From a virus, in the UHGV virus genome UHGV-1455077: a DNA stretch of 64,000 nt; one strand, 5' to 3'. The notes beneath the pieces are model-generated. The model did no database searches and had not been told where the DNA came from. It was given only the letters and a program-made list of their open reading frames with translations. Positions within the stretch are counted from its first letter, which is position 1, and each line of letters begins with the position of its first letter. The translations under genes were made by a program, and so were the position numbers. Below are positions 4,813 through 63,463 of this stretch, piece by piece.

Positions 4813-4817
4813 ATAAA

Positions 4818-8113: not shown

Positions 8114-8146
8114 TAAATATTTTTATAATTAAAGAATAAGGAATTT

Positions 8147-8695: not shown

Positions 8696-8724
8696 AAAAG
8701 GTGGTATTTTTACCACCTTTTTAA
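8694..8724. terminator. bidirectional rho-independent terminator (ggtggta tttt taccacc flanked by A-run and T-run)
   Basis: Perfect 7-bp stem with A6 upstream and T5 downstream, between convergent genes. Confidence 0.7.
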
Positions 8725-9488: not shown

Positions 9489-9512
9489 CCTTTTTTATAA
9501 TATATCTTAATT

Positions 9513-13652: not shown

Positions 13653-13674
13653 TTCTATACTTCCTGTTTTTTAA

Positions 13675-13703
13675 CAAGGTTAAGGCATTATGCCTTAACC
13701 TTG
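13675..13703. repeat. perfect 29-nt palindrome (14+1+14) caaggttaaggcat-t-atgccttaaccttg overlapping RtcB stop, upstream of lipoprotein gene
   Basis: Read directly; same 14-1-14 geometry as the palindromes upstream of the three paralog genes but different sequence. Confidence 0.5.
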
Positions 13704-17714: not shown

Positions 17715-17966
17715 TTAATCAATTATATCAGCCAAAATCATTTGTAATCTTTTATATTGGCTCTCATATAAAAACATTGAACCGTCTTCTTGCCAATATT
17801 CTTTTACCCATTTTTTTAATTTTTTTATTAAATCTTTATCGGATTGATTAACTAATTTTCTAACATTAATTGATGTCAATTCATCTAAAAATTGTTGTGG
17901 ATTTTCATAATATTCAATGACTTTCATTCTTTCCATAAATATATCCTTTTTATGGAAATATATCAT
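17715..17966 (-). CDS. hypothetical small protein (83 aa)
   Basis: ORF. Confidence 0.35.
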   Translation of the reverse strand: MIYFHKKDIFMERMKVIEYYENPQQFLDELTSINVRKLVNQSDKDLIKKLKKWVKEYWQEDGSMFLYESQYKRLQMILADIID

Positions 17967-21197: not shown

Positions 21198-21259
21198 TTA
21201 TAAATCCTTTTTATAATTGTTAACCAATTATAAAACAAAAATATTGAAAAATTCAATAA

Positions 21260-21296
21260 TAAAAAACCTCTAAAAAATTTTAGAGGTTTTTTATTT
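21260..21296. terminator. strong hairpin terminator (13-bp stem aaaacctctaaaa/ttttagaggtttt) after sheath gene
   Basis: Perfect 13-bp stem, 2-nt loop, T-rich flanks on both strands. Confidence 0.7.
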
Positions 21297-24426: not shown

Positions 24427-24551
24427 ATTTTCACTCCTATTAAATTAAATTATTTTTATTGTAAAAATAATTATAAAAACTTGTCTAAAAGTCTTTACAT
24501 ATATTTATGAAATAGGGTAAAAATAAAGGGGTAAACACATAACGAAATAAT

Positions 24552-24580
24552 TTGAAAGATATTTATTAAATATCTTTCAA
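24552..24580 (+). promoter_or_regulatory. perfect 29-nt palindrome ttgaaagatattta-t-taaatatctttcaa directly 5' of RBS of paralog gene A
   Basis: Read directly; conserved core TATTTA-N-TAAATA shared with elements at 31768 and 51049. Confidence 0.5.
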
Positions 24581-24593
24581 AGAGGATTTTATT

Positions 24594-25010
24594 ATGACTG
24601 ATATTAGTAAAATAAACATAGAAAGAATCAATGAGTTATCAACGAAATTAGATAATTTTAATACACAAATTAATAATATTAATTCAAAAATAAATTCAAT
24701 GAAATATGTTATTGATGCTAATTCTGATGGTAATCGTTGGTACCGAAAATGGAATGATGGATTTATTGAACAAGGCGGAAATAATATTATAAATTTAAAT
24801 AATGCTAATGAAGGAACAATTACATTTTTAACTCCATTTAATACTACTTCTTATATACCTCAAATAACTGTATATAATAGTAATGGTTCTTGGGTTTATG
24901 GTTGGATTAAATGGGATTCACGAACAAAAAATAATTTTATTTATTTTACTGCTGGTAGTAGAGCTGGTGATACTTCTAATGGAGCTTTTTGGTATGCTTA
25001 TGGATATTAA
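24594..25010 (+). CDS. small conserved protein, paralog family member A (138 aa)
   Basis: N-term MTDISKINIERINEL..., core WYRKWNDGFIEQGG, C-terminal ...YGY; paralogous to 31807..32202 and 50668..51036. Confidence 0.6.
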   Translation: MTDISKINIERINELSTKLDNFNTQINNINSKINSMKYVIDANSDGNRWYRKWNDGFIEQGGNNIINLNNANEGTITFLTPFNTTSYIPQITVYNSNGSWVYGWIKWDSRTKNNFIYFTAGSRAGDTSNGAFWYAYGY

Positions 25011-26170
25011 TAATATTCATATAACATTTCAAGAGAAAGACTTCTTATATATCCTTTTTCATCCATAATTTGCACAATATTATTTCCACCAATACAATTA
25101 TATTCTCGTTCAAAACGTTCAGCACCAACTTTTTTAATTTCAGCTTTTGCCCAATTTTCATCTTTTAATGGGCAAGCATCCCATCTAACTAATTGACTTT
25201 GAAATCCATTATTTCCATATGATTTTTTTGGAACAACATTAACAATTGTATTTTCATCTCTTAATGATTTAGCATATTCTTCTGCTTGGTCTTTATCTTT
25301 AAATAAATGAAAATCTCTATATAATTCACCATTAATTTCTAATATATAATCATCTGGTATATTCATTCCATAATCATCAATTTTGTTTTTAGCTCCTGAC
25401 CATAATCTAAAAAATAAATCTGTTTCAGAAATAGGAGTTGAAGTAATAAACAATTTACCTTGTGTAGCTGATAATGTTGGTGATAATGCACCATAAAATT
25501 CTTCTTGTTTCTCTAAAGCTTTATCTCCAGAATCTTGTACACCAATAAAAGCAAACTCATCACAATAAACAATTGCAGGAGAAATACCACGGGGAGCTTT
25601 AATAGTTGATGGTCTTACGTGAATTTCAGACCCATTATCAAAAACCATTTTTGATTTGTTATCTTCTTTTAATCCTTTCTTCAAAAAATCAGGACAATTT
25701 TCATACACACCTTTTATTTTTCCGAGGTTTTCCGATGCGGCACGCAAATCTTGAGCAGTTACCAAAATAATTTTATTATTAAATACCATTGCGTACCAAA
25801 GTAAATAAATGGCTGTTGTAATTGTTTTACCATTCTGACGAGAAAATAAAGAAATTAAAGAATGGTAATTATGCATATTAAACATCATTTCTCGTTGATA
25901 ATCAAATGGAATATATTGTTCCAAACCATTTCTATTAACCCAACAACAATGTTCGGCAAAAAACAACGCCCCATTAATTGGGTCATAAACTTTACGATAA
26001 ACCATTTTTTGAACATCTGTCATCTTTTTAAATGGTTTTGTTTTTTTAATAACACCAGTACCTTGAGGTAAAACAATTTTCATAATTTTTCCTTTATTAA
26101 AATTATTTATATTCGCATATTTATAAAATATCTTGTTTTCAGTTTTACAATAAATATTCTTATAAAACAT
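25007..26170 (-). CDS. terminase large subunit, N-terminal half: ATPase domain N-extein plus 29-aa N-intein fragment (25010..25096)
   Basis: Walker A SRQNGKT, Walker B IVYCDEF (gp17-like); ORF ends with CIGGNNIVQIMDEKGYIRSLSLEMLYEYY (intein block A-like, Cys codon 25094..25096) then stop. Confidence 0.85.
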   Translation of the reverse strand: MFYKNIYCKTENKIFYKYANINNFNKGKIMKIVLPQGTGVIKKTKPFKKMTDVQKMVYRKVYDPINGALFFAEHCCWVNRNGLEQYIPFDYQREMMFNMHNYHSLISLFSRQNGKTITTAIYLLWYAMVFNNKIILVTAQDLRAASENLGKIKGVYENCPDFLKKGLKEDNKSKMVFDNGSEIHVRPSTIKAPRGISPAIVYCDEFAFIGVQDSGDKALEKQEEFYGALSPTLSATQGKLFITSTPISETDLFFRLWSGAKNKIDDYGMNIPDDYILEINGELYRDFHLFKDKDQAEEYAKSLRDENTIVNVVPKKSYGNNGFQSQLVRWDACPLKDENWAKAEIKKVGAERFEREYNCIGGNNIVQIMDEKGYIRSLSLEMLYEYY

Positions 26171-27949: not shown

Positions 27950-27985
27950 ATTAAATGCTCCTAATTAGGAGCATTTAATTTTTTC
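27950..27985. terminator. bidirectional terminator, perfect palindrome aaatgctcctaa|ttaggagcattt followed by T-run
   Basis: 24-nt perfect palindrome between convergent genes, T6 downstream. Confidence 0.55.
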
Positions 27986-29490
27986 ACAACATCTTTTGAA
28001 AATGCTTTCATAAATTTCAAAATATAAGTATCTTCTCCATTTTTTTCTTCATTAATACGATTTCGTTCCTCTCTTGTTAATGGTCTAAATGGATTATCAT
28101 TTTTACTCAATGCCATATCAATTTGAATTTGGCGATTTAACAAATTAAAACCAACAAGATTTGTAATTGCTTTATGACCACCTGACATTTTTTCAATTAA
28201 ATTTATTAAAGAAACACGCTGATTATTCATAAATTTTATCATTCTCATTGATTGTTCAGCACGAGCAGGATTCATATTTTCACACCAATATTTTGACATT
28301 CTTAATCCCATAGAAATGCCTATTTTATTATCAATGTCAACATCAAATTCTTTTCCACAATTTGGAAAATTACTATCAAAATCAACCATATTAAAACCAA
28401 TTAATAGTTTTTCTTTTTCAACTTCAATACCTTTTTCAAATTCTGCTTTTATAGCCAACAAAGAAACTGTCTTATCTTTCAACCAATGAGATTTAGCATA
28501 TTGTTCAAGAAACATATCATTTAAGACAATTTTCCCTAAATCAATTTTATCATCAACATTGGGATTCCACGGATTTCTTGAAACTTGCATCATACCCATC
28601 TCATCCCAAATCATAATAAAAAATTTAGCTTGTGGAAAAATTCTAAAAGCAGTATATCGTTCATAAGAACCAACTTTTTTCATATTTCCACCACCAACCT
28701 GAACAATACAATCACCATTTAAACATAATTGCCCATTCTTTAATATATCAATAATATTATAGTCATCTGTAATCTGACTTTTTGACTTTTGGTCATTAAA
28801 ATATGCTTCAACATTTTCGTTAATTTCTTCTGGTTTTTTATACCATCTTGAATCTTCTTTATTATTAGTATCAATCCAATCAATCAATTGTTTATAGATA
28901 GATACTAATGATGGTGAACATTGCAATACTAAATTAGACAGCCAAGCATTTTTATTTTTATAAGTTAATAGCAACTTATTACAAGCCAACGCCATCTTTA
29001 AATGTCGTTGTAAATGATTTTCATTTTTATCAAATTTAAATACAGCATTTCCAACTTCTTCAGGCATTATATTATATTCATTAAAACTTACTGAATCAAT
29101 CATATCAATTGCTTTTTCATCATCAGTAGAAAAAATACCACTTCCAATAATTGAAGATATAGTAGATGCATTTGATTTTGAATGTCTAAAATGAGTTGAT
29201 GAACCATCATAAACAATTTGTGATTGATGATGGTCAGTATGTATTTGAATAAATTTTTTTCCGTGAGAAAAATCAACCATTACTCCCATATTTCCTTCTT
29301 CTGGAGCTGGAATGTTATATTCACCATCTCCATAATTTACTTTATGAGCCGCAACAACTTCAATATCATATTTTCTTAAATATTCCTTCATTGCTAAAGC
29401 ACTTGTTACACCATCTAAGTCAATATGAAAATAAATTTCAGCTTTTTTATATTTTTTAGCTAATTGTTTAATATTTCTAATACCACTCAT
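27961..29490 (-). CDS. DHH-family phosphoesterase (509 aa)
   Basis: DHH motifs: IYFHIDLDGVTSA (motif I/II-like DxD) and IHTDHH (DHH motif III). Confidence 0.5.
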   Translation of the reverse strand: MSGIRNIKQLAKKYKKAEIYFHIDLDGVTSALAMKEYLRKYDIEVVAAHKVNYGDGEYNIPAPEEGNMGVMVDFSHGKKFIQIHTDHHQSQIVYDGSSTHFRHSKSNASTISSIIGSGIFSTDDEKAIDMIDSVSFNEYNIMPEEVGNAVFKFDKNENHLQRHLKMALACNKLLLTYKNKNAWLSNLVLQCSPSLVSIYKQLIDWIDTNNKEDSRWYKKPEEINENVEAYFNDQKSKSQITDDYNIIDILKNGQLCLNGDCIVQVGGGNMKKVGSYERYTAFRIFPQAKFFIMIWDEMGMMQVSRNPWNPNVDDKIDLGKIVLNDMFLEQYAKSHWLKDKTVSLLAIKAEFEKGIEVEKEKLLIGFNMVDFDSNFPNCGKEFDVDIDNKIGISMGLRMSKYWCENMNPARAEQSMRMIKFMNNQRVSLINLIEKMSGGHKAITNLVGFNLLNRQIQIDMALSKNDNPFRPLTREERNRINEEKNGEDTYILKFMKAFSKDVVKKLNAPN

Positions 29491-31102: not shown

Positions 31103-31135
31103 AAAAAGAGTGTCATTTGACACTCTTTTATTTTA
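31103..31135. terminator. bidirectional terminator (agagtgtca tt tgacactct + T-run)
   Basis: 9-bp stem, A-run upstream and T-run downstream. Confidence 0.7.
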
Positions 31136-31708
31136 TACAATTTGAATTCTTAATAAGTAATCAAAAACCAATGTAATATTTGATGTTTTAGAAATAGGAT
31201 AATGGCAAATATGAGTAATTAAATCACCTTTACTTGTTCTCAAACCAACTTCAGAAAAAGTATATTCTGAAATAATTTGAGAATCATTATTTAAAACATT
31301 TTGTTCTGTTGGCTCACCTTTTTCCAATGTACAATGAACTAAAATATCTGAATATACGTTACCAGTAACGTGTGAAACCGTCATATAATTACGAGTTTTT
31401 TCTAAATTATCAGTAATTGAATGTTGGTCAACAACTTTATAATATGTTTCATTATATAACGATGCTGTACGACCAATTGTCTGTGGGGTACTATATAAAA
31501 ATTCATTTGAAGCATTTACTCTAACACCGCCGTTACCAAAAACTAATTGTGTTATATATCCACCATTATTTGATAAAGAATTAGCTAAGGCGATTGAAAA
31601 ATTTTCAGGGTGAATATCATTATGTACATCTAAAAGAACTTTACCTGTTTCTTCCTCGTGAATTCTTAAATGACCTTTAATTTTTGGCTGACTATAATCT
31701 TTAAACAT
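31133..31708 (-). CDS. hypothetical protein (191 aa)
   Basis: ORF; no motif. Confidence 0.5.
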   Translation of the reverse strand: MFKDYSQPKIKGHLRIHEEETGKVLLDVHNDIHPENFSIALANSLSNNGGYITQLVFGNGGVRVNASNEFLYSTPQTIGRTASLYNETYYKVVDQHSITDNLEKTRNYMTVSHVTGNVYSDILVHCTLEKGEPTEQNVLNNDSQIISEYTFSEVGLRTSKGDLITHICHYPISKTSNITLVFDYLLRIQIV

Positions 31709-31767
31709 AAATTTATCCTTTATCTTACATATACAAATATTTATTGCAAAAGAATTATAAAAAACAG

Positions 31768-31796
31768 TTTGTGGTTATTTATTAAATAACCACAAA
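31768..31796 (+). promoter_or_regulatory. perfect 29-nt palindrome tttgtggttattta-t-taaataaccacaaa directly 5' of RBS of paralog gene B
   Basis: Read directly; same core TATTTATTAAATA as 24552 element. Confidence 0.5.
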
Positions 31797-31806
31797 GGGG
31801 ATTATT

Positions 31807-32202
31807 ATGGCTGATATTTCAAAAATAGATATGAACAGAATTAATGGACTAATTGACAAATTTGAAGAAGTAATTAATAAATTAAATATGATAAGATATA
31901 TTGTTGAAGAATATCATTCGGGAACACAATGGTATAAAATATGGTCAGATGGTTGGATTGAACAAGGTGGTTATGTAATAAATCCATCATCTAATGAAAC
32001 GGTAAATTTATTAAAACCTTATAATAATATTAATTATAGTGTTTTATGTCAATATGCAATGGATTCAAATTCTACTGGAAGATTTTTATCTATTGGAAAT
32101 AAAACAAATTCTTCATTCTTAGTTAGAACAGGAGCATCAAATTTAGATTCTTGGAATGGTGGTTATCCAGTACCTTTTTATTGGGAAACCAAAGGATATT
32201 AA
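31807..32202 (+). CDS. small conserved protein, paralog family member B (131 aa)
   Basis: MADISKIDMNRINGL..., WYKIWSDGWIEQGG, ends ...KGY. Confidence 0.6.
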   Translation: MADISKIDMNRINGLIDKFEEVINKLNMIRYIVEEYHSGTQWYKIWSDGWIEQGGYVINPSSNETVNLLKPYNNINYSVLCQYAMDSNSTGRFLSIGNKTNSSFLVRTGASNLDSWNGGYPVPFYWETKGY

Positions 32203-32232
32203 AAAAGAGAGGTTTTAAAACCTCTCTTTAAT
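32200..32232. terminator. bidirectional terminator (agagagg ttttaaaa cctctct)
   Basis: 7-bp stem with A-run/T-run flanks between convergent genes. Confidence 0.7.
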
Positions 32233-41877: not shown

Positions 41878-43224
41878 ATGAAATTTAATGATTATTTTAA
41901 ATTAAAAGATATAACGGTAAATGTTACAAATTCTTGTAATTTAAATTGTGTATATTGTTTTGAACATAATAAAAATGGAATGAAAATGTCTTCTGAAATG
42001 ATTGAAAAAATCATTGATGTTAGCTATAATAATTATTTAATAACAAATGAAACTAAATTTCCATTTGTTGTTAATTTTTTTGGTGGAGAACCATTTTTAG
42101 CATTTGATGTTATGGAACACGCTATGAAATATGCAAAAAATAAAAAATATCGTATTTCTTTTGGTGTTACAACTAATTTAACAATGCTTACAGACCATAT
42201 GATTGATGTTATTGAAGATTATGAGTTAGGTTTATTGGTATCTGTTGATGGAATAAAAAAAATACACGATAGAAATAGATGTAATTCTTATGATATTGTT
42301 ATGTCAAATTTAAATAAATTGATTGACCGAGGATTAAAGCATTTAGTTGAAGTTAGAATGACAGTTATGCCTGCTGATTTGAAAGATTTATTAACAGGTA
42401 TACAAGAATTATATAATATAGGAATTGATAATATTGCTCCTGTTCCAGTAACTGATACTGAATGGACAGATGCTGATTATATGAATTTACGAGATGAAAT
42501 GCATAAAATTTGGGAATGGGCATTTTCAATTTATAATGATGAAAATAATAAAAGAAATTTATCATTAAAATGTATTGATGATTATTTAGAAATGGTACTA
42601 AATCCAATCTTTTTAGTACCAGACCAACGAAAAGTTTGTACGGCTGGAACATTTTCTTCTTGTTCATTTGGTGTAACTGGGGATATTTTACCTTGTCATC
42701 AACGTCATACTATTTCAGACCATTATGATGAGTTAGTAATGGGCAATATTAATAATACTGATGAGATTAGAGAGGTTAATTTCAATAAACAAACAATTAT
42801 GAATGAAAATCATAATTGTGATGTATGTAATGCAAGAGCTGTATGTAAAGGTGGCTGTCCATCGGAAAATCTTACATTAAATAACGATGGTAATGTAATG
42901 AATGATGTTCAATGTAATGTATTAGCTTATATGGTTGATGTTGCAGAACAATTTCAATGGTATTTAATTAATGATAAAATTCCTAACATTCGTTCAAGAA
43001 AATTAAATATATTAAGTCAAAATGTTAAATTGTTAGACCATATAACAGATATTTTGCTAAATGAAAGAAGCATTAGGGAAAATGAGATTGAATTATTAAA
43101 ATTTTATGAAACTTTGGTTGATATGGAAGGAATTTTATTACCAAGTTTTAGAGAAGCTATAAATTATACTATTTCCCAGATGGTAAATATTATTGATGAA
43201 CAAATTAAAAATGAAGGTGTATAA
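41878..43224 (+). CDS. radical SAM enzyme with SPASM domain (448 aa)
   Basis: CNLNCVYC (CxxxCxxC), GGEP motif, C-terminal Cys clusters (CTAGTFSSCSFG...CHQ; CDVCNARAVCKGGCPSE) typical of SPASM peptide-modifying rSAMs. Confidence 0.8.
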   Translation: MKFNDYFKLKDITVNVTNSCNLNCVYCFEHNKNGMKMSSEMIEKIIDVSYNNYLITNETKFPFVVNFFGGEPFLAFDVMEHAMKYAKNKKYRISFGVTTNLTMLTDHMIDVIEDYELGLLVSVDGIKKIHDRNRCNSYDIVMSNLNKLIDRGLKHLVEVRMTVMPADLKDLLTGIQELYNIGIDNIAPVPVTDTEWTDADYMNLRDEMHKIWEWAFSIYNDENNKRNLSLKCIDDYLEMVLNPIFLVPDQRKVCTAGTFSSCSFGVTGDILPCHQRHTISDHYDELVMGNINNTDEIREVNFNKQTIMNENHNCDVCNARAVCKGGCPSENLTLNNDGNVMNDVQCNVLAYMVDVAEQFQWYLINDKIPNIRSRKLNILSQNVKLLDHITDILLNERSIRENEIELLKFYETLVDMEGILLPSFREAINYTISQMVNIIDEQIKNEGV

Positions 43225-44042
43225 TGGCTGATAGTAATATTGTTAATAGACAAGTTTATCAAGATATTCGTGATACTTTTAAACAAAGAGCAATGAATTG
43301 GAATGGTGTATGGAAGGTATGGACAAATCAATCTCCTGATTGGGGTGGTCGTTGGGTATATGGATGGAAAGGAGTAAGAATCCAAATGTATGATACTATT
43401 CCAGAATCTGTCCGTGATAAAATTCAAAAAGAATATACTGGATTATCGGGTGAAGTTAATCAAGTTATTAATGAAGAATCTTCAAAAATTCATACTTTAG
43501 GAAATGAAAATAATATTAGAAGGGCTGTAATTCAATTAAATAATACAACTGATGCAAATATTGGTGTATATATTGGAAGTGAAAAATTACCAAAAATTGA
43601 AGTTAAAACTATTGGTACTGCTGGTAATTTTAATCCAGATGTTAATATTGCTAATACTTCTGATGATTATACTGTTAATAAATACAATACTTCATATGTT
43701 AGAGATATTCCAGCCAATAAAATTGTTAATACAACAACAGGACAGGAAGTTCCTTTAAATGCTGTTATCACTAAGGATATTAATCAAAAAACTCAAATGG
43801 AAGGTTCAACAAATCCAACTGAATCATCTCAAGCAGAAGGTATTGTTAAAAAATCTGATTATGAATTAATAAGAAGTGTATTAGAAAGAATTAAAGATTG
43901 TTTGATTCAAAAGAATTCTTGGTTTACTTATAATGGGATTTGTAGCCGTAGTTGTCAAATTAATTGTCAAAATAGATGTCAAGTAAGTTGTCAAGGTTGT
44001 AATACAAAACAATGTCACGACCAAAATTGTGGGAGTGTTTAA
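43224..44042 (+). CDS. protein with Cys-Gln-repeat C-terminal tail (272 aa); candidate substrate of flanking rSAM enzymes
   Basis: C-terminus ICSRSCQINCQNRCQVSCQGCNTKQCHDQNCGSV (9 Cys in 34 aa, CxxxC spacing, encoded by TGTCAA repeats); start codon overlaps rSAM stop; N-terminus weakly resembles the small paralog family. Confidence 0.55.
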   Translation: MADSNIVNRQVYQDIRDTFKQRAMNWNGVWKVWTNQSPDWGGRWVYGWKGVRIQMYDTIPESVRDKIQKEYTGLSGEVNQVINEESSKIHTLGNENNIRRAVIQLNNTTDANIGVYIGSEKLPKIEVKTIGTAGNFNPDVNIANTSDDYTVNKYNTSYVRDIPANKIVNTTTGQEVPLNAVITKDINQKTQMEGSTNPTESSQAEGIVKKSDYELIRSVLERIKDCLIQKNSWFTYNGICSRSCQINCQNRCQVSCQGCNTKQCHDQNCGSV

Positions 44043-44045
44043 TTT

Positions 44046-45242
44046 ATGGAATTATTTGAAAAAATTACACGTATTGCAGTTAAACTTTATTCAGGTTGCA
44101 ATATGAAATGTTGTTATTGCTTTCAACCATATAATGATAAAATTAAACCACGAATTTTTTCTGATTATGATAATTTATATAAATTTGTTAAATCTTTGCC
44201 GTTATCTGATATTGTAATTGTTACATTAGTTGGTGGAGAGGTAACATTAAGACCTGATTTAGTAAAACTTTGTATTAAAAAAGTATTTAAAAGAATTGAG
44301 AGAGAACAAGATGTAACTTTTCATTGTGCAACTATTTCCAATGGAACTAATTTAGATATTTTACTTGATTTATGTAATGAAAATTATTTTTATTCTAAAC
44401 ATTGCTGTATTTCTTGGGATGGTTTATTTTCATCAAGTTTATCAAGAAAGATAAATGGAAAATATGATGATGAATATTTTAAAAATATGATACTACAATT
44501 GGGTAAATCTGAATACAATGATAAAATTTCCATAGTTCACGCTTTAACACCTGAAACTTTACCATATTTGGCTGATAGTTTTAAGTTTTGTTTTGATAAT
44601 AATGTTTTAAGTTTGGGTTATTATTATATTCACGAAGCAAATTATAATAGTGATTATATATATAAAGAATTTGAAAAACAAATTAGAAAAATTTGTGATA
44701 TGTATATTCAAAATGATAAAATTAATTTTTATAATTGGGTTAATTATTTTCAACGAAGAAGAAATCCTGATAATTTTTTTACTTGTGTAAAATTAGGAAA
44801 TAATTATTTTATTAATCCAGAAGGAGAAATTTATCCTTGTATTTATTTAGGAGACCATAAAGCATATAACCTTGGTAATATTAAAGATGGAATTGATTTA
44901 AATAAACAAAATGAATTTGTTAAGGAATATTATCATTATCCATTATGCAAATATAAAACTTGTAAATGTTATCAATGTTCTGAATGTCCTGCGGCTAATT
45001 ATGTTAATAATGGAAGTTTACATAAAAGATTTGAAGGGGCGTGTGAATTATATAAAATTGAAAATAAAGTTTTTGAAGAATATTATGAAAAAATAAAAAA
45101 TAATATAATGTTTAATAATGAATATTTAAATGAAATGTTGCCAACTTATGATTTGAATAAATTTACTGAATGTGATTTTGAATTTCATTATTCAGAATCC
45201 AAATCTCCAAATTTGAATATTGTTCAACAATGGAATAAATGA
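44046..45242 (+). CDS. radical SAM enzyme with SPASM-like C-terminal Cys cluster (398 aa)
   Basis: CNMKCCYC near N-terminus; GGE motif; C-terminal CIYLGD...CKYKTCKCYQCSECPAANY. Confidence 0.8.
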   Translation: MELFEKITRIAVKLYSGCNMKCCYCFQPYNDKIKPRIFSDYDNLYKFVKSLPLSDIVIVTLVGGEVTLRPDLVKLCIKKVFKRIEREQDVTFHCATISNGTNLDILLDLCNENYFYSKHCCISWDGLFSSSLSRKINGKYDDEYFKNMILQLGKSEYNDKISIVHALTPETLPYLADSFKFCFDNNVLSLGYYYIHEANYNSDYIYKEFEKQIRKICDMYIQNDKINFYNWVNYFQRRRNPDNFFTCVKLGNNYFINPEGEIYPCIYLGDHKAYNLGNIKDGIDLNKQNEFVKEYYHYPLCKYKTCKCYQCSECPAANYVNNGSLHKRFEGACELYKIENKVFEEYYEKIKNNIMFNNEYLNEMLPTYDLNKFTECDFEFHYSESKSPNLNIVQQWNK

Positions 45243-46401
45243 AATGAAGAAAACAACTTTACCGCCAATGATAAATCATTGTTTTTTGATGTTATCTGAA
45301 CAATGTAATTTAAGATGTAAGTATTGTTATATTCAAGGGAGAGATAATCCATATACTATTGATATTTCGGTAATGGAAAAAATTAAAAAAATGTTTACTT
45401 GCTATAATAAGCCACGAATTATATTTTTTGGTGGAGAACCATTATTAAGAGTGAATTTAATTAAAGAAATTGTTAAAAAATATAAAGATGATTTTCAATA
45501 TCAAGTTGTTACAAATGGAACAGTAAATTTTAATGAATTTATGGATGAAGTATATCAACCATTTAATCATATTTTTGATGTTCAAATTTCGTGGGATGGT
45601 AATATTGATACTCGTAAATCTGTAACTAATAAGATTACAAATAATATTGTATATGATAATATTATTACTCAATTAAAAAAAGGGTATAGATTAGAAGGAA
45701 GATGTGTTTTAGATGAAACATCAGTAAAAAATTTTTTTGAAACTTACAAAATATTTAAAGATTTACATCATACATATAAATTTAGTGGAGATTTTACAAT
45801 AGCTCATCAGCCCCAATTTAAAGAATCATATTGGAATGATTTGGAAGTTCAATTAAATTTGATTTTTTCTGATATTAAAAATAATTTAGTTAATGATAAT
45901 AAAATTTATATTCCACGATTTTTATATAAAAACATTACTAATGTTATTGAAAATAAGCCAGTAATATCTTGTGATGTTGGAAATTATGTTGTTATCCGTC
46001 CAAATGGAGATATATATCCTTGTACTATTTTATCGCAAATAGATGAAAGATTTAAAATGGGGAATATCAATGATGAAATTGATACAGAAATTATAGACGA
46101 TTTAAAATATAAATCATCTTGTAAAAAAGAATGTGAATATAAATCTATATGTGATGGTGGTTGTCGTTATGAAAGAATAAAAAATTTTTCAAATAGTTGG
46201 AAAGAAAATATATGCCCATTTACTTGTGAAATTTATAAGGTTATTTATGAATGTACAAACAAATTTTTAAATTCATTAGATGCTGACCAACAGAATAAAT
46301 TGTATGAACTGATTACTCAATATAATTTATGGAGTATTGATTATTGTAATGGTAGTTCAAAATTAAATAAAGATGACGGAATGATAAAATTAAATGTATA
46401 A
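45220..46401 (+). CDS. radical SAM enzyme with SPASM-like C-terminal Cys cluster (393 aa)
   Basis: CNLRCKYC; GGEP; C-terminal CTILSQ...CKKECEYKSICDGGCRYE; overlaps upstream gene by 23 nt. Confidence 0.75.
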   Translation: MFNNGINEMKKTTLPPMINHCFLMLSEQCNLRCKYCYIQGRDNPYTIDISVMEKIKKMFTCYNKPRIIFFGGEPLLRVNLIKEIVKKYKDDFQYQVVTNGTVNFNEFMDEVYQPFNHIFDVQISWDGNIDTRKSVTNKITNNIVYDNIITQLKKGYRLEGRCVLDETSVKNFFETYKIFKDLHHTYKFSGDFTIAHQPQFKESYWNDLEVQLNLIFSDIKNNLVNDNKIYIPRFLYKNITNVIENKPVISCDVGNYVVIRPNGDIYPCTILSQIDERFKMGNINDEIDTEIIDDLKYKSSCKKECEYKSICDGGCRYERIKNFSNSWKENICPFTCEIYKVIYECTNKFLNSLDADQQNKLYELITQYNLWSIDYCNGSSKLNKDDGMIKLNV

Positions 46402-46428
46402 ATAATTTATATATTTTAAGGAAATAAA

Positions 46429-47571
46429 ATGATAATTTTTATGCCAGAACGTGTTTATGAATATTTTAAAAATGATGATTTTTTAAATGAAAAAATTAAA
46501 GAAATTAGTAATAAAGTTTATAATGAATCTCAACATTATGATTTAAAAAATTTTTTAAGTATTGATGAACATATTTTTGATGAAGTTAATCAATATATGT
46601 TGAATAATGTTTCAGATGAATTGCGTGATGAATTAAATATTTGCTTAAATGGTTATAATCAAAAAGCTAATTTATTTGCTAAGAATATTGAAAAATATGA
46701 TATTGAAACTCAAATATATTTAATGTATATGCTTAATGATGGAGATATGAGTCCGTCAGAAGATTTATTTAATAGATATAAACGAATTAATGAATTATAT
46801 GAACAAAATGATTTAAATTTTTCGGCTTTTATACATACCATTTATTATTTTACAAATTTATATTTACAATGGGTTGATAGTGATAATTTGAAAAAAATTA
46901 ATGAAAATGGATTTTTTTCATATCAAGAAGTGAAAAAAATGTTAAGCTATGAAGATACATTATTTTCTAAAATGAAAAATAAAGTAAATTCTGAACAATA
47001 TTTTAATATTTTATTTCATAAACGAATTCAAATGATGTATCTTTTTATGTTGTTTATTGGACAATTTAGTGAAAATTTTGATGATGTCGTTGAATTAATT
47101 ATTAGAAAAATTTATGATAATAGATTTAAATATGATAATTTTAATTATTTAAAATTGGCAATTAATCATATCTTTTTTCAAACATATTTTGATAAAGGAG
47201 ATTTTACTAAAGCTAAGAAATATTTAATGTATAATATATCTATGATTAATTATGGATTTGCTCATAAATTTGAAATGGTTAAAGCATTAAACCATTTTAA
47301 TAAGATTTTTAGTAAAGAATTTTGTAATTATTTGTTTTTCTTATATACAATGATTCGTGTTTATATTCCAAGTTTACAAAAAGAATTTAATATTTTAAAT
47401 AGTGAAAATGCCACGGAATTTGAAAAGAGATTGTTATTTGGTAAATTGCAAGATGATGAAAAAATGTTCGGTTTAGATTTAAATCCAAATGAATGGTTAT
47501 CTTTTAAATGGTGTCAACTTAATAAAAGTTCGTTTGATTATTTTAATAAAAATGTTGACAATTTATCTTAA
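46429..47571 (+). CDS. hypothetical protein (380 aa)
   Basis: ORF following rSAM operon; no motif. Confidence 0.5.
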   Translation: MIIFMPERVYEYFKNDDFLNEKIKEISNKVYNESQHYDLKNFLSIDEHIFDEVNQYMLNNVSDELRDELNICLNGYNQKANLFAKNIEKYDIETQIYLMYMLNDGDMSPSEDLFNRYKRINELYEQNDLNFSAFIHTIYYFTNLYLQWVDSDNLKKINENGFFSYQEVKKMLSYEDTLFSKMKNKVNSEQYFNILFHKRIQMMYLFMLFIGQFSENFDDVVELIIRKIYDNRFKYDNFNYLKLAINHIFFQTYFDKGDFTKAKKYLMYNISMINYGFAHKFEMVKALNHFNKIFSKEFCNYLFFLYTMIRVYIPSLQKEFNILNSENATEFEKRLLFGKLQDDEKMFGLDLNPNEWLSFKWCQLNKSSFDYFNKNVDNLS

Positions 47572-49622: not shown

Positions 49623-50087
49623 TTGAGGTATAAAATGACAGATGGATTTATAAAATTATTTGAAGAACTTGATGAATGCTATAGTGATTTTATAGAATTT
49701 GAAGAATTTGAATATAATGAAAATCTTATGAATGAAGTTTATTTTATGCTTGACTATTTAAATAGTTATAATATTGATTTAACTAAGTATGAAATTAATG
49801 ATTTTGAAAGTGATGATGGAGAAAAAGTCGGTGTTGAATATTGGATGAAAAATAAAAAAGAATCTTGGGTTCTTGGAATTCTTATTCACGAACAAGATTT
49901 AAATAGTAGTTTGATTGAAGTTTCTTTTGTCAATGATGCAATTGTTGATGTTTATACAATTGAAATTAATAAAAAAAATTGTTTAAATATTGTTGAAATT
50001 GTTAAAGATATTGAGGAATTATTTCAAAAAAGAAATAAGAGAAACTTAAAAAAATATCTTAAAAGTAAAAATGCGAGTATATTATAA
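49623..50087 (+). CDS. hypothetical acidic protein (154 aa)
   Basis: ORF. Confidence 0.45.
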   Translation: MRYKMTDGFIKLFEELDECYSDFIEFEEFEYNENLMNEVYFMLDYLNSYNIDLTKYEINDFESDDGEKVGVEYWMKNKKESWVLGILIHEQDLNSSLIEVSFVNDAIVDVYTIEINKKNCLNIVEIVKDIEELFQKRNKRNLKKYLKSKNASIL

Positions 50088-50671
50088 TGAAACATTTAAA
50101 AACTAAAATATCATTTTTTGATATTGATGAAACAATTTTTCATACACACGCTCTGATTAATGTTATGAAAAATGAACAAATCATTAAGAAATTGACCAAT
50201 AAAGAATTTAATACATATAAATTACAGGATGGAGAAAGTTTTGATTTTTCTGAATTTAGAGATTCATCTGTTTTTTATAATACATCTGAACCTATTAATA
50301 ATGTTATTAAATTGGTTAAACGATATATTGATAATATTAAAGGTAATGATAGAGTTATTTTTCTGACAGCTCGTGAAGATTTTAAAGATAAAAATAAATT
50401 CTTAGAAACATTTAGAAAATATGGAATCAATATAGACCATCCAAATGTATATGTTGAAAGAAGTGGTAATTTAAAATTTATTGAGAAAGTTCATCAACGA
50501 AAAAATTTTATTGTTCGTAAGTATCTTAAAACGAAACTATATACTGATGTTAAAATGTATGATGATAGTCATAATAATTTATCTAATTTTATGATGTTAC
50601 AAAAGTCATTTCCTAAATGTAATTTTAATGCTATTCAAGTAATTGGAAATGGTAAATTAAAGAAATTTTAG
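50087..50671 (+). CDS. HAD-superfamily phosphatase (194 aa), possibly polynucleotide 3'-phosphatase-like
   Basis: HAD motif I FFDIDETIF (DxDxT), motif II LTAR, motif IV MYDDS. Confidence 0.5.
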   Translation: MKHLKTKISFFDIDETIFHTHALINVMKNEQIIKKLTNKEFNTYKLQDGESFDFSEFRDSSVFYNTSEPINNVIKLVKRYIDNIKGNDRVIFLTAREDFKDKNKFLETFRKYGINIDHPNVYVERSGNLKFIEKVHQRKNFIVRKYLKTKLYTDVKMYDDSHNNLSNFMMLQKSFPKCNFNAIQVIGNGKLKKF

Positions 50672-51036
50672 TATCCACACGCATACCACCATCCAGTTGC
50701 ATTGTATGAACCTGAACGACTAAAAGTTATTTGATGGTTATTGACAATTGATACTCTTAAATTAACAGAATTTGAATCATTTCTAATTGCTATGCATATT
50801 GTATAATTAGTATTAGAAAATGCTTTATGAATTGTTTTAGTTTCTGTATTTATTGTATTAGTTCCTAAAAAACCACCTTGTTCAATCCAGCCATCTGACC
50901 AAACACGATACCATTCAGTTCCTTCATTCCAAGTTTCCACAACATATTTCATTGAATTAAGTTTATCAGTTACTTCTTCAAGTTTATCAAGTAATCCATT
51001 AATTCGTTCCATATCAATTTTTGAAACATCAGTCAT
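50668..51036 (-). CDS. small conserved protein, paralog family member C (122 aa)
   Basis: MTDVSKIDMERINGL..., WYRVWSDGWIEQGG, ends ...ACGY. Confidence 0.6.
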   Translation of the reverse strand: MTDVSKIDMERINGLLDKLEEVTDKLNSMKYVVETWNEGTEWYRVWSDGWIEQGGFLGTNTINTETKTIHKAFSNTNYTICIAIRNDSNSVNLRVSIVNNHQITFSRSGSYNATGWWYACGY

Positions 51037-51048
51037 ACATTATCTCCT

Positions 51049-51077
51049 TTGAAGAATATTTAATAAATATTCTTCAA
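51049..51077 (-). promoter_or_regulatory. perfect 29-nt palindrome ttgaagaatattta-a-taaatattcttcaa directly 5' of RBS (AGGAG) of paralog gene C
   Basis: Read directly; on minus strand the core reads TATTTATTAAATA as in the other two elements. Confidence 0.5.
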
Positions 51078-51117
51078 ACTTTATTTTTGTTAGAATCAAT
51101 TTTTTAAAAAAATGGGT

Positions 51118-51125
51118 TATAAATA
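51118..51125 (+). promoter_or_regulatory. T4-type late promoter motif TATAAATA upstream of 51165 gene
   Basis: Exact TATAAATA about 40 nt upstream of ATG. Confidence 0.35.
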
Positions 51126-51164: not shown

Positions 51165-51785
51165 ATGAGCGGTATAATTAATCCAGAAACTGGTAAGCCT
51201 TTAAGACATTATGCACAGGATTTGGTTACAAGAGCAAGATATATTATCATTTCTTTACAGAATGATACTGATAAAGATACTTGTTCAGTAGTTGATATTG
51301 ATGCATTGGATTCAGATACACGTGCTGAATTAGTTAATTTGGTTAATAGTGAGGAATGCCAGCATCAACCAGAAATTTGGAAAGTTTTAGATAGAAAATA
51401 TTTTATGAATTATCCAAAGCAGACAATGTTGAAAGTTTTAAGAGGATTAAAACAGATTAGAATTGTTAAGTCTGCACAAGTTGCAATTCAATGCCCAGAT
51501 GATGTTGTTAGAACACCAAAAGATATTATTGAAGGTTTGAATGTTTATTATGCAACAAAAGCAAATCAAGGAAAAATTGGTATGTCTAATCCATATATGC
51601 CAACCGAGATGATGCAGACAGCTCCAGTTCAGGCACTTCCAACAGCTATTGACAATCAACCAGCAAATGATTCTGAAATTAAAGAAATTAAAGAAGAAAT
51701 GACTCAAATTAAAGAAACAGTTGGTGCATTAACGACATCAATTTCTGAATTAGTAAAGGCTTTATCAGAATCTAAAAAAGGTTAA
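51165..51785 (+). CDS. hypothetical protein (206 aa)
   Basis: ORF with RBS AAGGAG; Pro/Gln-rich linker and C-terminal helix. Confidence 0.5.
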   Translation: MSGIINPETGKPLRHYAQDLVTRARYIIISLQNDTDKDTCSVVDIDALDSDTRAELVNLVNSEECQHQPEIWKVLDRKYFMNYPKQTMLKVLRGLKQIRIVKSAQVAIQCPDDVVRTPKDIIEGLNVYYATKANQGKIGMSNPYMPTEMMQTAPVQALPTAIDNQPANDSEIKEIKEEMTQIKETVGALTTSISELVKALSESKKG

Positions 51786-57459: not shown

Positions 57460-58443
57460 ATGAATGAATATAAAATTTATAAATTAATATTCCCAAATGG
57501 AAAAGTATATATTGGACAAACTAAGCAAGAAATTCAAAAAAGATGGGGATTTCAAGGAAAAGGTTATAAGAATTGCCCTAAAGTATATAATGCTATTTTA
57601 AAATATGGGTGGGAAAATGTTAAAAAAGAAATTTTATACGATAAATTAAATCATAATGATGCAAATATGTTAGAGATTAAATTAATAACAGAAGTATATA
57701 ATAGTAATAACAATAATTTTGGATATAATATTGAAAATGGTGGAAATACAATAGGAACACATTCGGAAGAAACAAAAAGGAAAATTGGTGAAGGTAATAA
57801 AGGTAAAATTGTATCATTAGAAACCAGAGAAAAAATAAGACAAAAAAATAAAAATAAACACTATAGTATACAAACAGAAATTTCAACTGGGCAACATTTA
57901 AGTTTTTTAACAGAATTTAAAAAAGGGGATATTCCGTGGAATAAAAATAAAAAATGCCCTCAAATTTCACAAAGGCTATATGGAAGAAAACTTTCAGAAG
58001 AAACAAAGATAAAAATTGGAGAAGCAAATTCTGGAAGAAAAATGTCCAATGAATTAAAATTAAAATTAAAATATATTAATACTGGAAGAAAACTTTCAGA
58101 AGAAACAAAAAGAAAAATTGGTGAAGGTAATAAAGGTAAAATTGTATCATTAGAAACCAGAGAAAAAATAAGACAAGCTAAATTAGGAAAGAAAGCAAGT
58201 AATGAAGCAAAAGAAAAATTAAAAAATATTTGTAAAATGTCAAATATGAAAAGAAATCAGCATTTAATATTTTTTAATGAAAAGATGTATAATTTAAAAG
58301 AATTATCAGAACTATTAAATGTTAAATATGCAACATTAAGAATGTATATCAGTAAATACTCAAAAATTTTAGGTGAACAAGAAGCAATAAATAAAATGAT
58401 TAAATACTATGGGGAAAAATATGACAAGTCCAGCGAAAAATAA
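57460..58443 (+). mobile_element. free-standing GIY-YIG homing endonuclease (Seg/I-TevI-like) with repeated NUMOD3-type DNA-binding motifs (327 aa)
   Basis: GIY-YIG: YKIYKLIFPNGKVYIGQT ... NIENGG; three NUMOD-like repeats (ETKRKIGEGNKGKIVSLETREKIRQ twice). Confidence 0.85.
57766..58176 (+). repeat. near-identical 78-nt direct repeat (57766..57843 and 58099..58176) inside the homing endonuclease gene
   Basis: Two copies differ at 1 nt; a third diverged copy near 57979..58040. Confidence 0.8.
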
Positions 58444-61307: not shown

Positions 61308-63019
61308 TATAATATTACTCCTGAAATTCTTAAAACTTCTTCAATTTCATCATTTTCTTCATCATCATCTTCTTCAATAAATTTATTATATTCTGGTATT
61401 GACATAAAAATATCTAAAATGTCACCTGCATCTTCTTTTGACCATTCTGTTCCATATTGAGAAAAATCAATATTATTGATTGAAATATCTCCTTCTTCTT
61501 CATCAATGTAAAGATTTAAATCATCATAAACTTCATTTAATGATTTTTGACCATTATTTGTATATTCACGATAAAATTGTTCGACACTATGGCAATCATA
61601 TAATGTATATATGAAGTTATATTCATAATCAGTATATTTGGAACGTGATGGTGGTGTCCAGCCGAACTTACGTAATTGGTCATAAACATATTCATCAATA
61701 ACTTGATTAAATGTAGATTTTGAAATTTTTTTATAAATTAATTCTTCCCATTTATTATCTTTAGATGAAAACCATTTTTCAAGATTTTTATCATTATATT
61801 TTGAATCATTTGTATTAAATAAAGTATTTAAAAATTTTTCAAAATCAATATCATCAGATGATAAACTATTTTCTTTAAGATAAAATTTATATAATGTTTT
61901 TAATTGTGTATCTTCCCAATTTACATCTTCAACAAAACTTATATCTTGAATAGCTTTTTTGTAAAATTTAGAAACGTTATAACCACTCGGATAATCTAAA
62001 TAACCATTCATTGCCATTTCTTTATAATCATTAATATCAGTTAAATAGTTGTGTCTTAATAGTGTTGAATAAGAAATCTGTAAAGCAATTTCTCCAACAT
62101 CTGTACGTGTTAAATCATATTCATATGCAATATCATTTTCTCTGTCTTCATCCCATTCATCGTCTTCTGAAGGGTCTTCAAGATTTTTATATGAATTAGT
62201 TACATCTTCTTGGGTTAAAAAGAAATCTAATAATTCTGGATTTTCGTGTACAAATTCTCTAAATTTAACAGAATCATTATTGGCATCTCTAAATTCACGG
62301 TCTCTGCCTTGATATTCATCAGGGACAAATAATTGCAATTTTTCTTTTTGATTATCTTTATTAATAATAACATATAAAGTTCCATCAGCAGTATAATTAT
62401 CATAATATAAACAATTATCACCGCCAGTACACCAAGATGCTCCTCGTCTTAATGCTTTAGAACCTTCATAAGTATGAGGTGTCCAAACTTCCCAATTATC
62501 TCCATTAAATAATAACTCAACAGCACCGTCCATATACATACCAGGTTTTTTTTCACCTTGTAATTCTTTTTGGTTTCTTTTAGCATCTTTATTTTTTTGA
62601 TTAACAGTTAGATTGTCTTTGGCAGTTGATAATGCATTTTTTAATTCATCAATTGTTTTATAACTGTTAATATCATTGCTAGGTAATAAATTTTTTCTAT
62701 TTTTTGCTTGGGTAAATGCTTTAAGATATTGTTGCATTTTTTCTGGAGATATATTTTTTAATTCTCCAATTTTATTCATTTTTAATAACCAACGACTATA
62801 ATTTTCAGGTGTTGAAGCTAAGACATCATTAGATAAATTTTGGATATTTCCTAAAACAGGGTCAAATGAAATTAAATATTTAAATTCTTCATCAGATAAA
62901 TTTGAAGCATTTTTTTGACGGACATCTAAAAGGGATTCATTTAATATTGAACTAAAATGAATATTATTAATATTAACTTTTTTTCCTAAATGTATTTTAT
63001 TAAAATATGAAAGTTTCAT
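61307..63019 (-). CDS. hypothetical protein (570 aa), paralog of 36315..38117; follows gp25-like gene (possible baseplate module)
   Basis: Shared SWCT-containing domain with 36315 gene; acidic C-terminus. Confidence 0.5.
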   Translation of the reverse strand: MKLSYFNKIHLGKKVNINNIHFSSILNESLLDVRQKNASNLSDEEFKYLISFDPVLGNIQNLSNDVLASTPENYSRWLLKMNKIGELKNISPEKMQQYLKAFTQAKNRKNLLPSNDINSYKTIDELKNALSTAKDNLTVNQKNKDAKRNQKELQGEKKPGMYMDGAVELLFNGDNWEVWTPHTYEGSKALRRGASWCTGGDNCLYYDNYTADGTLYVIINKDNQKEKLQLFVPDEYQGRDREFRDANNDSVKFREFVHENPELLDFFLTQEDVTNSYKNLEDPSEDDEWDEDRENDIAYEYDLTRTDVGEIALQISYSTLLRHNYLTDINDYKEMAMNGYLDYPSGYNVSKFYKKAIQDISFVEDVNWEDTQLKTLYKFYLKENSLSSDDIDFEKFLNTLFNTNDSKYNDKNLEKWFSSKDNKWEELIYKKISKSTFNQVIDEYVYDQLRKFGWTPPSRSKYTDYEYNFIYTLYDCHSVEQFYREYTNNGQKSLNEVYDDLNLYIDEEEGDISINNIDFSQYGTEWSKEDAGDILDIFMSIPEYNKFIEEDDDEENDEIEEVLRISGVIL

Positions 63020-63408
63020 TAATTTTCTCCTAATGGATAAACACCAGTTGATGGATTATTAAATTTTTCTAAAGTTATATCTAAATTCCAACTTTCAGGC
63101 AATCCATCTAAATAACTAACTGTACAATCAAACACCCACCCTTTTTCCATATCAATTGGGTTAATATCCAATAAAGTAAAACGAGGTTCTTCTTGAAAGG
63201 TTTCAATTAGTTCATCTTGAATATCATTTCTTACTTGTATTGTTTTTGGTTGAAATAAACGATTACGAATTGTTGTACCAAAATTTGGATTCCAATCGCA
63301 TTCACCTTTGGTTGTATAAATTCTAATTAATAAATCGTGTTTAGCTAATTCTTTATCAATCAAAATTTCCCATTCATCATTTATTGTTGTATAACCTGTA
63401 ATTGTCAT
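63019..63408 (-). CDS. baseplate wedge protein, gp25/GPW-like (129 aa)
   Basis: TTKGECDWNPNFGTTIRNRLFQP matches T4 gp25 TRKGSRPFDPEFGCDLSDQLFEN; size about 130 aa. Confidence 0.6.
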   Translation of the reverse strand: MTITGYTTINDEWEILIDKELAKHDLLIRIYTTKGECDWNPNFGTTIRNRLFQPKTIQVRNDIQDELIETFQEEPRFTLLDINPIDMEKGWVFDCTVSYLDGLPESWNLDITLEKFNNPSTGVYPLGEN

Positions 63409-63434
63409 AAAAAATCCTTATATAAAGATATTTA

Positions 63435-63463
63435 TTGACAAACTTATTGTTTAATGGTAATGT
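63435..63463 (+). promoter_or_regulatory. sigma70-like early promoter TTGACA-N17-TAATGT upstream of gp47-like gene
   Basis: Exact -35 hexamer, 17-nt spacer, good -10; 27 nt upstream of ATG. Confidence 0.45.

Follow-up and report, generated by a model that had tools for sequence, protein, structure and literature searches.

What does a long, perfect palindrome do directly in front of each of several small paralogous phage genes? The question arose from a 64,000-nucleotide stretch of a viral genome (UHGV virus genome UHGV-1455077; hereafter the window), for which an initial annotation, made from the sequence alone, had described three 29-nt perfect palindromes (14+1+14), each just 5′ of the ribosome-binding site of a paralog gene. 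The three palindromes (E1, E2 and E3; Table 1) are present where they had been placed, and E1 and E3 proved to be one pair longer than described (15+1+15). Read toward the downstream gene, the inner 13 nt are TATTTA-T-TAAATA in all three, as claimed, the central A given for the third element being the plus-strand view of a minus-strand gene. Each palindrome ends 10–13 nt before the ATG of its paralog, the final AAA of the stem forming the start of the Shine-Dalgarno sequence AAAGGRG, and this abutment on the ribosome-binding site was borne out both for E1–E3 and across the family described below. The core TATTTA-N-TAAATA occurs three times in the window against an expectation of 0.23, a number reached in none of 100 shuffles, and the suggested search for the same core elsewhere returned, within the 64-kb window, E1–E3 alone. 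Overall, the observation is real and stronger than first stated: the element is a conserved, structured regulatory cassette of a fiber-gene family in gut jumbo phages. With a probability of roughly 0.4, we favor the reading that the palindrome is a compact late-promoter/terminator stem-loop cassette which also serves as the recombination repeat of that gene family.

We collected at least 38 contexts of the element (at least 29 once near-identical flanks were merged), comprising at least 17 arm variants with arms of 14–16 nt. IMG/VR was scanned with the pattern TTT-N6-ATTTAWTAAAT-N6-AAAGG and metagenomes with the pattern ATTTAWTAAAT-N20-40-GATAYNAGTAAA, both of which leave the arms free to mismatch; the latter yields the matches listed, so counts for the family are lower bounds. 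In the related contigs (at least four phage contigs together with human-gut metagenome contigs) the palindrome lies upstream of every paralog, and the module is present in at least 9–13 copies per genome, each fronting a small fiber-like gene. With the arms left free, the family matches were all perfect palindromes, the sole exception being a copy with one C.A mismatch, and matches outside the family had random arms with 2–6 mismatches. The possibility that a long palindrome is a general trait of the core motif in viral DNA was rejected on ~105 other TATTTAATAAATA...AAGGAG sites in IMG/VR, just one of which pairs beyond 9 bases.

The family allowed the pairing of the arms to be assessed by covariation. 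In an ungapped alignment of the 17 variants, 237 of 238 stem cells (99.6%) were Watson-Crick pairs; both sides had changed in 7 of the 14 pairs, giving 46 compensatory cells, and none of the 238 cells held a G-U pair. The observed covariation was matched by 0 of 500 shuffled alignments, and sliding the partner column by 1–3 positions lowered pairing to 42–55%. These data argue for base pairing of the arms, and they uphold what the initial annotation had concluded from the outer arms of three copies. The consensus layout of the element is TTT-R, 4–7 variable nt, TATTTA-T-TAAATA, the complement of the variable part, Y-AAA and GG. G+C content of the variable part of the arm is ~40% (counted from the collected contexts), compared with 26% for the genome, and the 13-nt core varies less than the phage's regular late boxes do. 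Among the matches listed, adjacent cassettes always have different arms, and at one locus the central base flips between strains L022 and L179. In the imperfect copy, the C.A on the gene strand is a U.G on the opposite strand.

The genes behind the palindrome share little apart from their beginnings. Pairwise identity among the three paralogs of the window is 32–43%, and the homology common to genes of the family is confined to the first 15–30 residues, MxD(I/T)SK(I/L)..R(I/V)(D/N), often followed by a coiled-coil-like stretch. The C-terminal parts vary (Gp53-like_C, Phage Tail Collar, Mtd-type, and at least three without a family match), and a collar gene with a different N-terminus is preceded by the palindrome too. 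From these domains, we infer that the family encodes fiber or receptor-binding proteins, which would be expected to be expressed late. Each of the three paralogs in the window is solitary and runs antisense within an array, paralog 1 lying between the tail sheath gene (−) and the gene for the N-terminal half of the large terminase, TerL (−).

By the gene content of the window, the phage is a distant T4-superfamily jumbo phage (a myovirus). Its 1037-aa tail sheath is ~33% identical to the sheaths of Rak2-like jumbo phages and of Vibrio phage 2.275.O, and further T4-type genes encode a gp6-like baseplate wedge, a gp15-like sheath stabilizer and a T4-type DNA polymerase; other genes encode NrdD/NrdG, an NAD-dependent ligase, RtcB and a split large terminase. 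G+C content of the 64-kb window is 26%. A megablast search of 10 kb of the window against GenBank phages returned no match, a search with the paralog proteins found no close isolate, and a tRNA scan of the window found none. Four related contigs of 203–282 kb are present in IMG/VR, one of them 99% identical to the window, and human-gut metagenome contigs share the window's genes.

Two promoter motifs, an early and a late type, lie upstream of window genes. The early type, TTGACA-N17-TAnnnT, precedes early-type genes, among them those for RtcB, the radical-SAM enzymes and the ligase, and the late type, (C/T)(A/T)ATAAATAT-N3-TAT, precedes the wedge, sheath, sheath-stabilizer, adaptor and virion-protein genes. 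Of the 57 ATAAATA occurrences in the window, 27 are intergenic (intergenic DNA being 6% of the window), and 16 lie 15–40 nt before a start codon. The same late motif, together with a gp55-like factor, is found in the Rak2-like phage CBB (PMC5259590), and the T4 late promoter, which lacks a −35 element, consists of an 8-bp box at −13 to −6 (PMC2988020). The initial annotation had noted that the palindrome core resembles the T4 late motif without being identical to it, and the likeness is meaningful: this is a T4-superfamily phage with its own ATAAATA(T) box, from which the core is one base off on the gene strand.

The box occupies a fixed place in the palindrome, spanning in every copy the apex plus the 6 nt with which the 3′ arm opens. 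On the gene strand the sequence is ATTAAATA, with a single mismatch to the box at −12, and on the opposite strand it is AATAAATA, an exact match; an exact late box is present on the opposite strand in ~36 of 38 contexts. The distance from box to ATG is 18–21 nt in the palindromes, compared with 15–39 nt for regular late boxes (20 nt in the regular late promoter of gene 63019-63408). In front of a 359-aa Mtd-like paralog, the inner symmetry is lost and the consensus AATAAATAT stands at the same place. In divergent, co-directional and terminator-ended contexts alike, no non-coding sequence other than the palindrome is conserved before the paralogs. No second conserved promoter was found upstream of the hairpin in the collected contexts, whose flanks are unrelated save for their A-richness; no other candidate paralog promoter was found in the divergent regions of ~100 nt, and no TTGACA-N17-TATAAT in or beside the element. 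Because no other conserved non-coding sequence lies upstream in all three kinds of context, the paralog promoter would, by elimination, lie in the palindrome.

Hairpins with a late box at the apex are found elsewhere. In an unrelated phage of 110 kb (IMGVR_UViG_3300037515_000188; L095), a 150-aa gene is preceded at 4778-4814 by an 18+1+18 palindrome, CTCCTTTTTCTATATTTA-A-TAAATATAGAAAAAGGAG, with a consensus late box at the apex on the gene strand and a GGAG Shine-Dalgarno sequence paired with CTCC (−22.7 kcal/mol). It is a textbook arrangement of the T4 gene e/soc type, with the ribosome-binding site sequestered. Its design matches that of the fiber palindromes with the consensus box on the gene strand, and we count it in favor of the promoter reading. 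In the window itself, an imperfect inverted repeat (63402-63441, −) encloses the regular late promoter of gene 63019-63408; TTGTCA ahead of the box pairs there with TGACAA at the start codon, in a weak fold (−9.6 kcal/mol, z −1.9) that may be a milder version of a hairpin promoter.

The opposite strand of the element has regularities of its own, which the initial annotation had not noted. Upstream of the palindrome, 17 contexts of the family have a divergent neighbor, about 10 a co-directional gene ending 1–37 nt away, and 3 a terminator only; the divergent neighbors belong to at least seven unrelated gene families. The gene orders in the window are TerL N-half (−)/E1 (+)/sheath (−), NrdD (−)/E2 (+)/31133-31708 (−), and a plus-strand array ending at 50671/E3 (−)/51165 (+). 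In 17 contexts, the neighbor has a consensus late box on the opposite strand no more than 40 nt away, and in 15 of these 17 its distance from the palindrome is 22–25 nt, with spacers that show no other sequence relationship. The stretch of 10 nt preceding the palindrome is A-rich (5.5–6.1 A versus 2.5–2.8 T), so the hairpin, read from the opposite strand, has a U-rich tail. In 22 of the 29 contexts this tail has 5 or more T among 8 nt (background 0.22; binomial p ~1e-9, with contexts partly non-independent), and four of the seven exceptions have a canonical GC-rich terminator exactly there. The hairpin alone folds at about −12 to −13 kcal/mol. In a consensus terminator scan, E2 was terminator-like on the minus strand, and E1 and E3 failed solely the requirement for 3 G-C pairs. 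A terminator read from the opposite strand would jointly explain why the arms pair, why they are enriched in G+C, why the flank is A-rich and how far away the next promoter lies, and it is fitted by the imperfect copy, whose mismatch is U.G on that strand.

Strain comparison shows whole fiber cassettes inserted, deleted or replaced at the repeated module, a role that the initial annotation had not noted. At one locus, with the same neighbor gene, spacer and palindrome, L104 and L153 each carry one cassette (478 and 563 nt, respectively) that is absent from L111 and L114, and the alignment blocks at the extra cassette overlap over the palindrome core, the Shine-Dalgarno sequence and ~25 codons. 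In L140, a different (collar) gene stands behind the same palindrome, and homology ends 11 nt past it. Shuffling mediated by promoter/stem-loop composites known as PeSL (promoter-early stem-loops) is established in T4-type phages (PMC4122927, PMC2839356), and the pattern among our strains is the signature reported for it.

Fiber diversity may have a further source at one paralog. The 359-aa Mtd-like paralog (MIDISKVQINRI...), present in L101 (minus strand, gene start 378 in reversed coordinates), L105 and L128, matches the Mtd second domain (PF21916, E 1.4e-10). Its last ~115 nt vary at scattered positions among strains, and an inverted copy of its 3′ end, 81–84% identical, lies ~1.6 kb downstream. 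The two look like the variable-repeat/template-repeat (VR/TR) pair of a diversity-generating retroelement acting on one member of the fiber family.

Taken together, the reading that we favor would work as follows. A T4-late-type box in the invariant center would place TAAATA at about −11 to −6 and the center of symmetry at −12. Transcription by a gp55-like late RNA polymerase would begin at the conserved YAAA that closes the right arm, and the resulting short leader would open with the AAAGGRG Shine-Dalgarno sequence; with its start in the right arm, the paralog mRNA would carry no hairpin. The same element would act in the other direction as a terminator or insulator, a step for which the tail statistics speak in part. 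The paralogs lie antisense in arrays, and opposing transcripts would traverse the whole element, fold a hairpin of 14–16 bp and meet the U-rich tail, forming an intrinsic terminator just before the neighbor's late promoter. Such a role would also account for the need of the arms to pair and for the G+C enrichment of their variable part. Lastly, the palindrome, the Shine-Dalgarno sequence and the conserved first 15–25 codons supply, as the strain comparison shows, the homology for insertion, deletion and replacement of cassettes.

We put this reading no higher than stated because the promoter and terminator are inferred and because the central base contradicts a simple consensus promoter, and several observations weigh against it. 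The gene strand reads TTAAATA; all 14 regular late promoters of the window have the initial A of ATAAATA, and the exact consensus box sits on the opposite strand. TTAAATA as a general variant of the late box was rejected, since only 4 of its 139 occurrences, the 3 palindromes included, lie at promoter distance. Position −5 is T in regular promoters and variable in the palindromes. The gene-strand promoter would accordingly be either deliberately weak, or aided by structure or a dedicated factor, or misassigned. No gp55 or gp45 homolog was found among the window's open reading frames (ORFs), nor by phmmer (T4 gp55 and gp45 as queries) in the related loci, which are partial genomes. For a terminator, the stem is weak, being A+U-rich at its base (UUUG/CAAA) with 2–4 G-C pairs; three contexts have neither a U tail nor a substitute terminator; tandem contexts retain the stem too, although no role for opposing transcription is obvious there; and the A-rich flank could mean something else. 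In addition, templated repair of quasi-palindromes, as in T4 mutagenesis, could keep the arms perfect without selection.

An alternative that gives the symmetry itself a function is an element acting at the level of DNA: a structure-dependent promoter (an extruded hairpin or cruciform centered at −12) or the operator of a dimeric regulator of a fiber regulon. The symmetry is perfect through the center, including innermost bases unable to pair in a hairpin loop, neither G-U nor G-T occurs among the 238 stem cells, and the invariance of the 13-nt core exceeds that of the regular late boxes. The non-consensus gene-strand box, moreover, is found solely in the palindromic setting, where extra activation may be needed; T4 late promoters open slowly and do better on supercoiled DNA (PMC2988020). 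However, a dimeric protein would have no need for complementarity in uncontacted spacers of 4–7 nt, arm lengths of 14, 15 and 16 are unsuited to a rigid dimer site, and the strand-asymmetric U/A-rich flank would go unexplained. Missing G-U pairs are not diagnostic, because all hairpins of this phage, its ordinary bidirectional terminators included, are perfect palindromes. The initial annotation had likened the elements to the hairpin promoters of N4, which have stems of 5–7 bp and are read by the giant virion RNA polymerase of podophages. Their inverted repeat is centered at about −12 and has a conserved apex, a geometry that the predicted −12 center of symmetry matches. In contrast, the phage studied here is a T4-superfamily myovirus with stems of 14–16 bp. 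The window holds no candidate for an N4-like polymerase, its largest ORF encoding a 1163-aa baseplate wedge protein, and the giant ORF that is the largest in the related loci collected (partial genomes) was rejected as a candidate, as it encodes a 2453-aa virion structural protein (phrog_10938). With no such polymerase seen in the window or in the related loci collected, the N4 comparison is unsupported, and we regard a DNA-level element in general as rather unlikely. A bolder version, in which the palindrome is read as folded DNA by a dedicated phage factor (a promoter-recognition protein for the receptor-binding regulon, or an attC-like shuffling system), strikes us as improbable; if true, it would mean a programmable fiber repertoire in gut jumbo phages, alongside the putative diversity-generating retroelement on one paralog.

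If the element served the opposite strand only, it would be an array terminator plus an extra late promoter (AATAAATA) for the neighbor, and the paralog would be transcribed from elsewhere. The exact late box on that strand would then be explained, the U-rich tail and the fixed 22–25 nt to the neighbor's box would form a tandem promoter arrangement, and two late promoters are also found at T4 gene e (PMC3014915). The palindrome nevertheless tracks the paralog and not the neighbor, being kept with at least seven unrelated neighbor genes and even with an upstream co-directional gene ending 1–37 nt away, where a promoter would be pointless. Its end always coincides with the paralog's Shine-Dalgarno sequence, the divergent regions offer no other paralog promoter, and the center base flips between L022 and L179 at a single locus; we judge this explanation distinctly unlikely. 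About as improbable in our view is an RNA operator or stabilizer in the 5′ untranslated region of the paralog, read by a translational repressor, an RNase III-type enzyme or the ribosome. Its anatomy would be classical, with a conserved loop and upper stem above a covarying lower stem whose base overlaps the AAA of the Shine-Dalgarno sequence in every variant despite arms of 14–16 nt, and read-through mRNA would carry the hairpin in co-directional and tandem contexts. On the other hand, 17 divergent contexts leave a non-conserved spacer of 22–25 nt, with no conserved promoter, upstream of the hairpin; a stem of 14 bp is short for RNase III; G-U pairs are missing; and no curated RNA family of Rfam 15 matched anywhere in the window at the gathering score. 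In read-through RNA only the AAA is covered (unpaired probability 0.08), and the computed accessibility of the GG core is 0.63 with the hairpin and 0.75 without it. Ribosome-binding-site sequestration of the T4 gene e type was thus tested and rejected, the GG core staying open, and a stem-loop in the paralog's own 5′ leader, which the initial annotation had allowed for, is unlikely. Finally, the palindrome could be primarily a recombination site, at which a hairpin or cruciform that is cut, paused at or attC-like moves fiber cassettes, with the symmetry kept by templated repair. Cassette insertions and deletions end in the module, replacement occurs behind the same palindrome, the arms of adjacent cassettes always differ among the matches listed, the window encodes a RusA-like resolvase and homing endonucleases, and PeSL crossovers have been mapped inside the stem-loop (PMC2839356). 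Yet the repeat at the ends of these insertions and deletions is ~100 bp long and includes the coding N-terminus, so ordinary homologous recombination suffices; cassette 3′ ends lack a hairpin site, and no recombinase is linked to the arrays in the sequence collected. Given also that the invariant core, the fixed Shine-Dalgarno junction and the U-rich flank point to expression signals, we consider a dedicated recombination site very unlikely.

Among known systems, the favored late-promoter/terminator cassette is akin to two arrangements already described, the T4 late promoter in a hairpin and the PeSL-like promoter/terminator cassette. Late promoters embedded in ribosome-binding-site hairpins are known from T4 e, soc and I-TevI and from Aeh1 mobE; transcripts initiated at the box lack the 5′ arm, and longer transcripts fold the hairpin (PMC3014915). 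As at e and soc, an inverted repeat that contains a T4-type late box directly precedes a late gene's ribosome-binding site. Unlike there, the stem extends no further than the AAA of AAAGGRG and the GG core stays open, the gene-strand box is off-consensus, a U-rich tail follows on the other strand, and the palindrome is perfect over 29–33 nt and recurs at least 9–13 times per genome before one gene family. The PeSL elements are likewise short, repeated composites of a promoter and a stem-loop terminator that flank small accessory genes, and recombination between copies inserts, deletes and replaces cassettes. They differ in having a sigma70-type early promoter beside a separate stem-loop, often GGGG/CCCC, on the same strand and in flanking ORFans. 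The stem-loop described here itself contains the late-type box, its promoter and terminator would work on opposite strands, and the cassettes are fiber or receptor-binding genes with a common N-terminus. The fiber palindromes also resemble the phage's own bidirectional terminators (21258-21295, 31104-31129 and 32204-32229) in being perfect intergenic hairpins with a T-run after the stem. The ordinary terminators, however, have a G+C-rich core and A and T runs on both sides and share no common sequence, whereas the fiber palindromes have an invariant A+T core of 13 nt, a T tail on one strand and a Shine-Dalgarno sequence on the other side.

Table 1. Palindromes, paralog genes and associated signals in the 64-kb window.
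Feature	Coordinates	Strand	Remarks
Palindrome E1, TTTGAAAGATATTTA-T-TAAATATCTTTCAAA	24551..24581	+	15+1+15; core 24560-24572; folds on both strands
Shine-Dalgarno of paralog 1, AAAGAGGA	24579..24586	+	First three A are the last three stem bases
Paralog 1, N-terminus MTDISKINIERIN	24594..25010	+	138 aa; C-terminal Gp53-like tail-fiber domain (PF21882, E 3e-5, at the curated cut-off)
Tail past the E1 hairpin, UUAUUUCGUUAU	24539..24550	-	5 T in the best 8-nt window
Late box ATAAATA (TCATAAATATATG) of divergent tail-sheath gene 21313-24426	24502..24508	-	Consensus
Palindrome E2, TTTGTGGTTATTTA-T-TAAATAACCACAAA	31768..31796	+	14+1+14; core 31776-31788
Shine-Dalgarno of paralog 2, AAAGGGGA	31794..31801	+	
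Paralog 2, MADISKIDMNRIN...	31807..32202	+	131 aa; antisense between 31133-31708 (-) and NrdD (-)
Tail past the E2 hairpin, CUGUUUUUUAUA	31756..31767	-	7 T of 8
Late box (CAATAAATATTTGTAT) of divergent gene 31133-31708	31738..31744	-	Consensus; 23 nt from palindrome E2
Palindrome E3, gene direction TTTGAAGAATATTTA-T-TAAATATTCTTCAAA	51048..51078	-	15+1+15; core 51057-51069
Shine-Dalgarno of paralog 3, AAAGGAG	51044..51050	-	
Paralog 3, MTDVSKIDMERIN...	50668..51036	-	122 aa; antisense in a plus-strand array, between 50087-50671 (+) and 51165-51785 (+)
Tail past the E3 hairpin, CUUUAUUUUUGU	51079..51090	+	7 T of 8
Late box (TTATAAATATTTTTAT) of divergent gene 51165-51785	51119..51125	+	Consensus

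A fourth palindrome, which the initial annotation had described as sharing the 14+1+14 geometry, exists as a perfect 15+1+15 palindrome at 13674-13704 (ACAAGGTTAAGGCAT-T-ATGCCTTAACCTTGT). It is G+C-richer and overlaps the stop codon of an RtcB-like gene, with a small Rz-like gene following on the same strand; a U tail is missing, and the 81-nt fold in which it lies is stable at −23 kcal/mol. It was rejected as a fourth member of the family, as its sequence and context are unrelated and no copy is present in any related locus collected, and it may be an mRNA processing or stability hairpin.

Early promoters were identified by eye in upstream regions. The clear host-type motif TTGACA-N17-TATAAT, often with TG, stands upstream of the early-type genes at 13695-14906 (−), 17715-17966 (−) and 27961-29490 (−) and, on the plus strand, at 40189, 41878, 47616, 49623 and 54184. 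A sigma70 consensus scan of the window gave 118 sites versus 117.6 expected and is uninformative in A+T-rich DNA. One of these promoters lies in front of 41878-47571 (+), which encodes two radical-SAM proteins, an Fe-S oxidoreductase-like protein and ORFs of unknown function. The TTGACA-N17-TATAAT promoters, together with strong AAAGGAGG-type Shine-Dalgarno sites, point to a low-G+C host with a canonical sigma-A, and NrdD/NrdG suggests that the host is anaerobic.

Two genes 6 kb apart (17991-19118, −, and 25007-26170, −) encode the nuclease and ATPase halves of the split large terminase, and the tail sheath gene and fiber paralog 1 lie between them. The window contains a homing endonuclease gene of the phrog_314 type (57460-58443, +), and in L105 a GIY-YIG-like ORF (1344-2147, +) lies beside a fiber cassette; homing endonucleases also occur in T4-type phages. 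In L086, the gene for the 2453-aa virion structural protein (3630-10988, −) is directly downstream of one fiber paralog and in the same direction.

The phages that carry the cassette are uncultured members of the human gut virome of 200–280 kb, each with about ten small fiber or receptor-binding genes and at least five different C-terminal domains. For such phages, the 30-bp cassette is a sequence handle with which host-range genes can be found in metagenomes. It offers a testable model for the expression and insulation of late genes embedded antisense in arrays, and a mechanism for the exchange of fiber genes between strains. The idea behind PeSL, that regulatory cassettes act as recombination modules, would thereby extend from early ORFans to late host-range genes.

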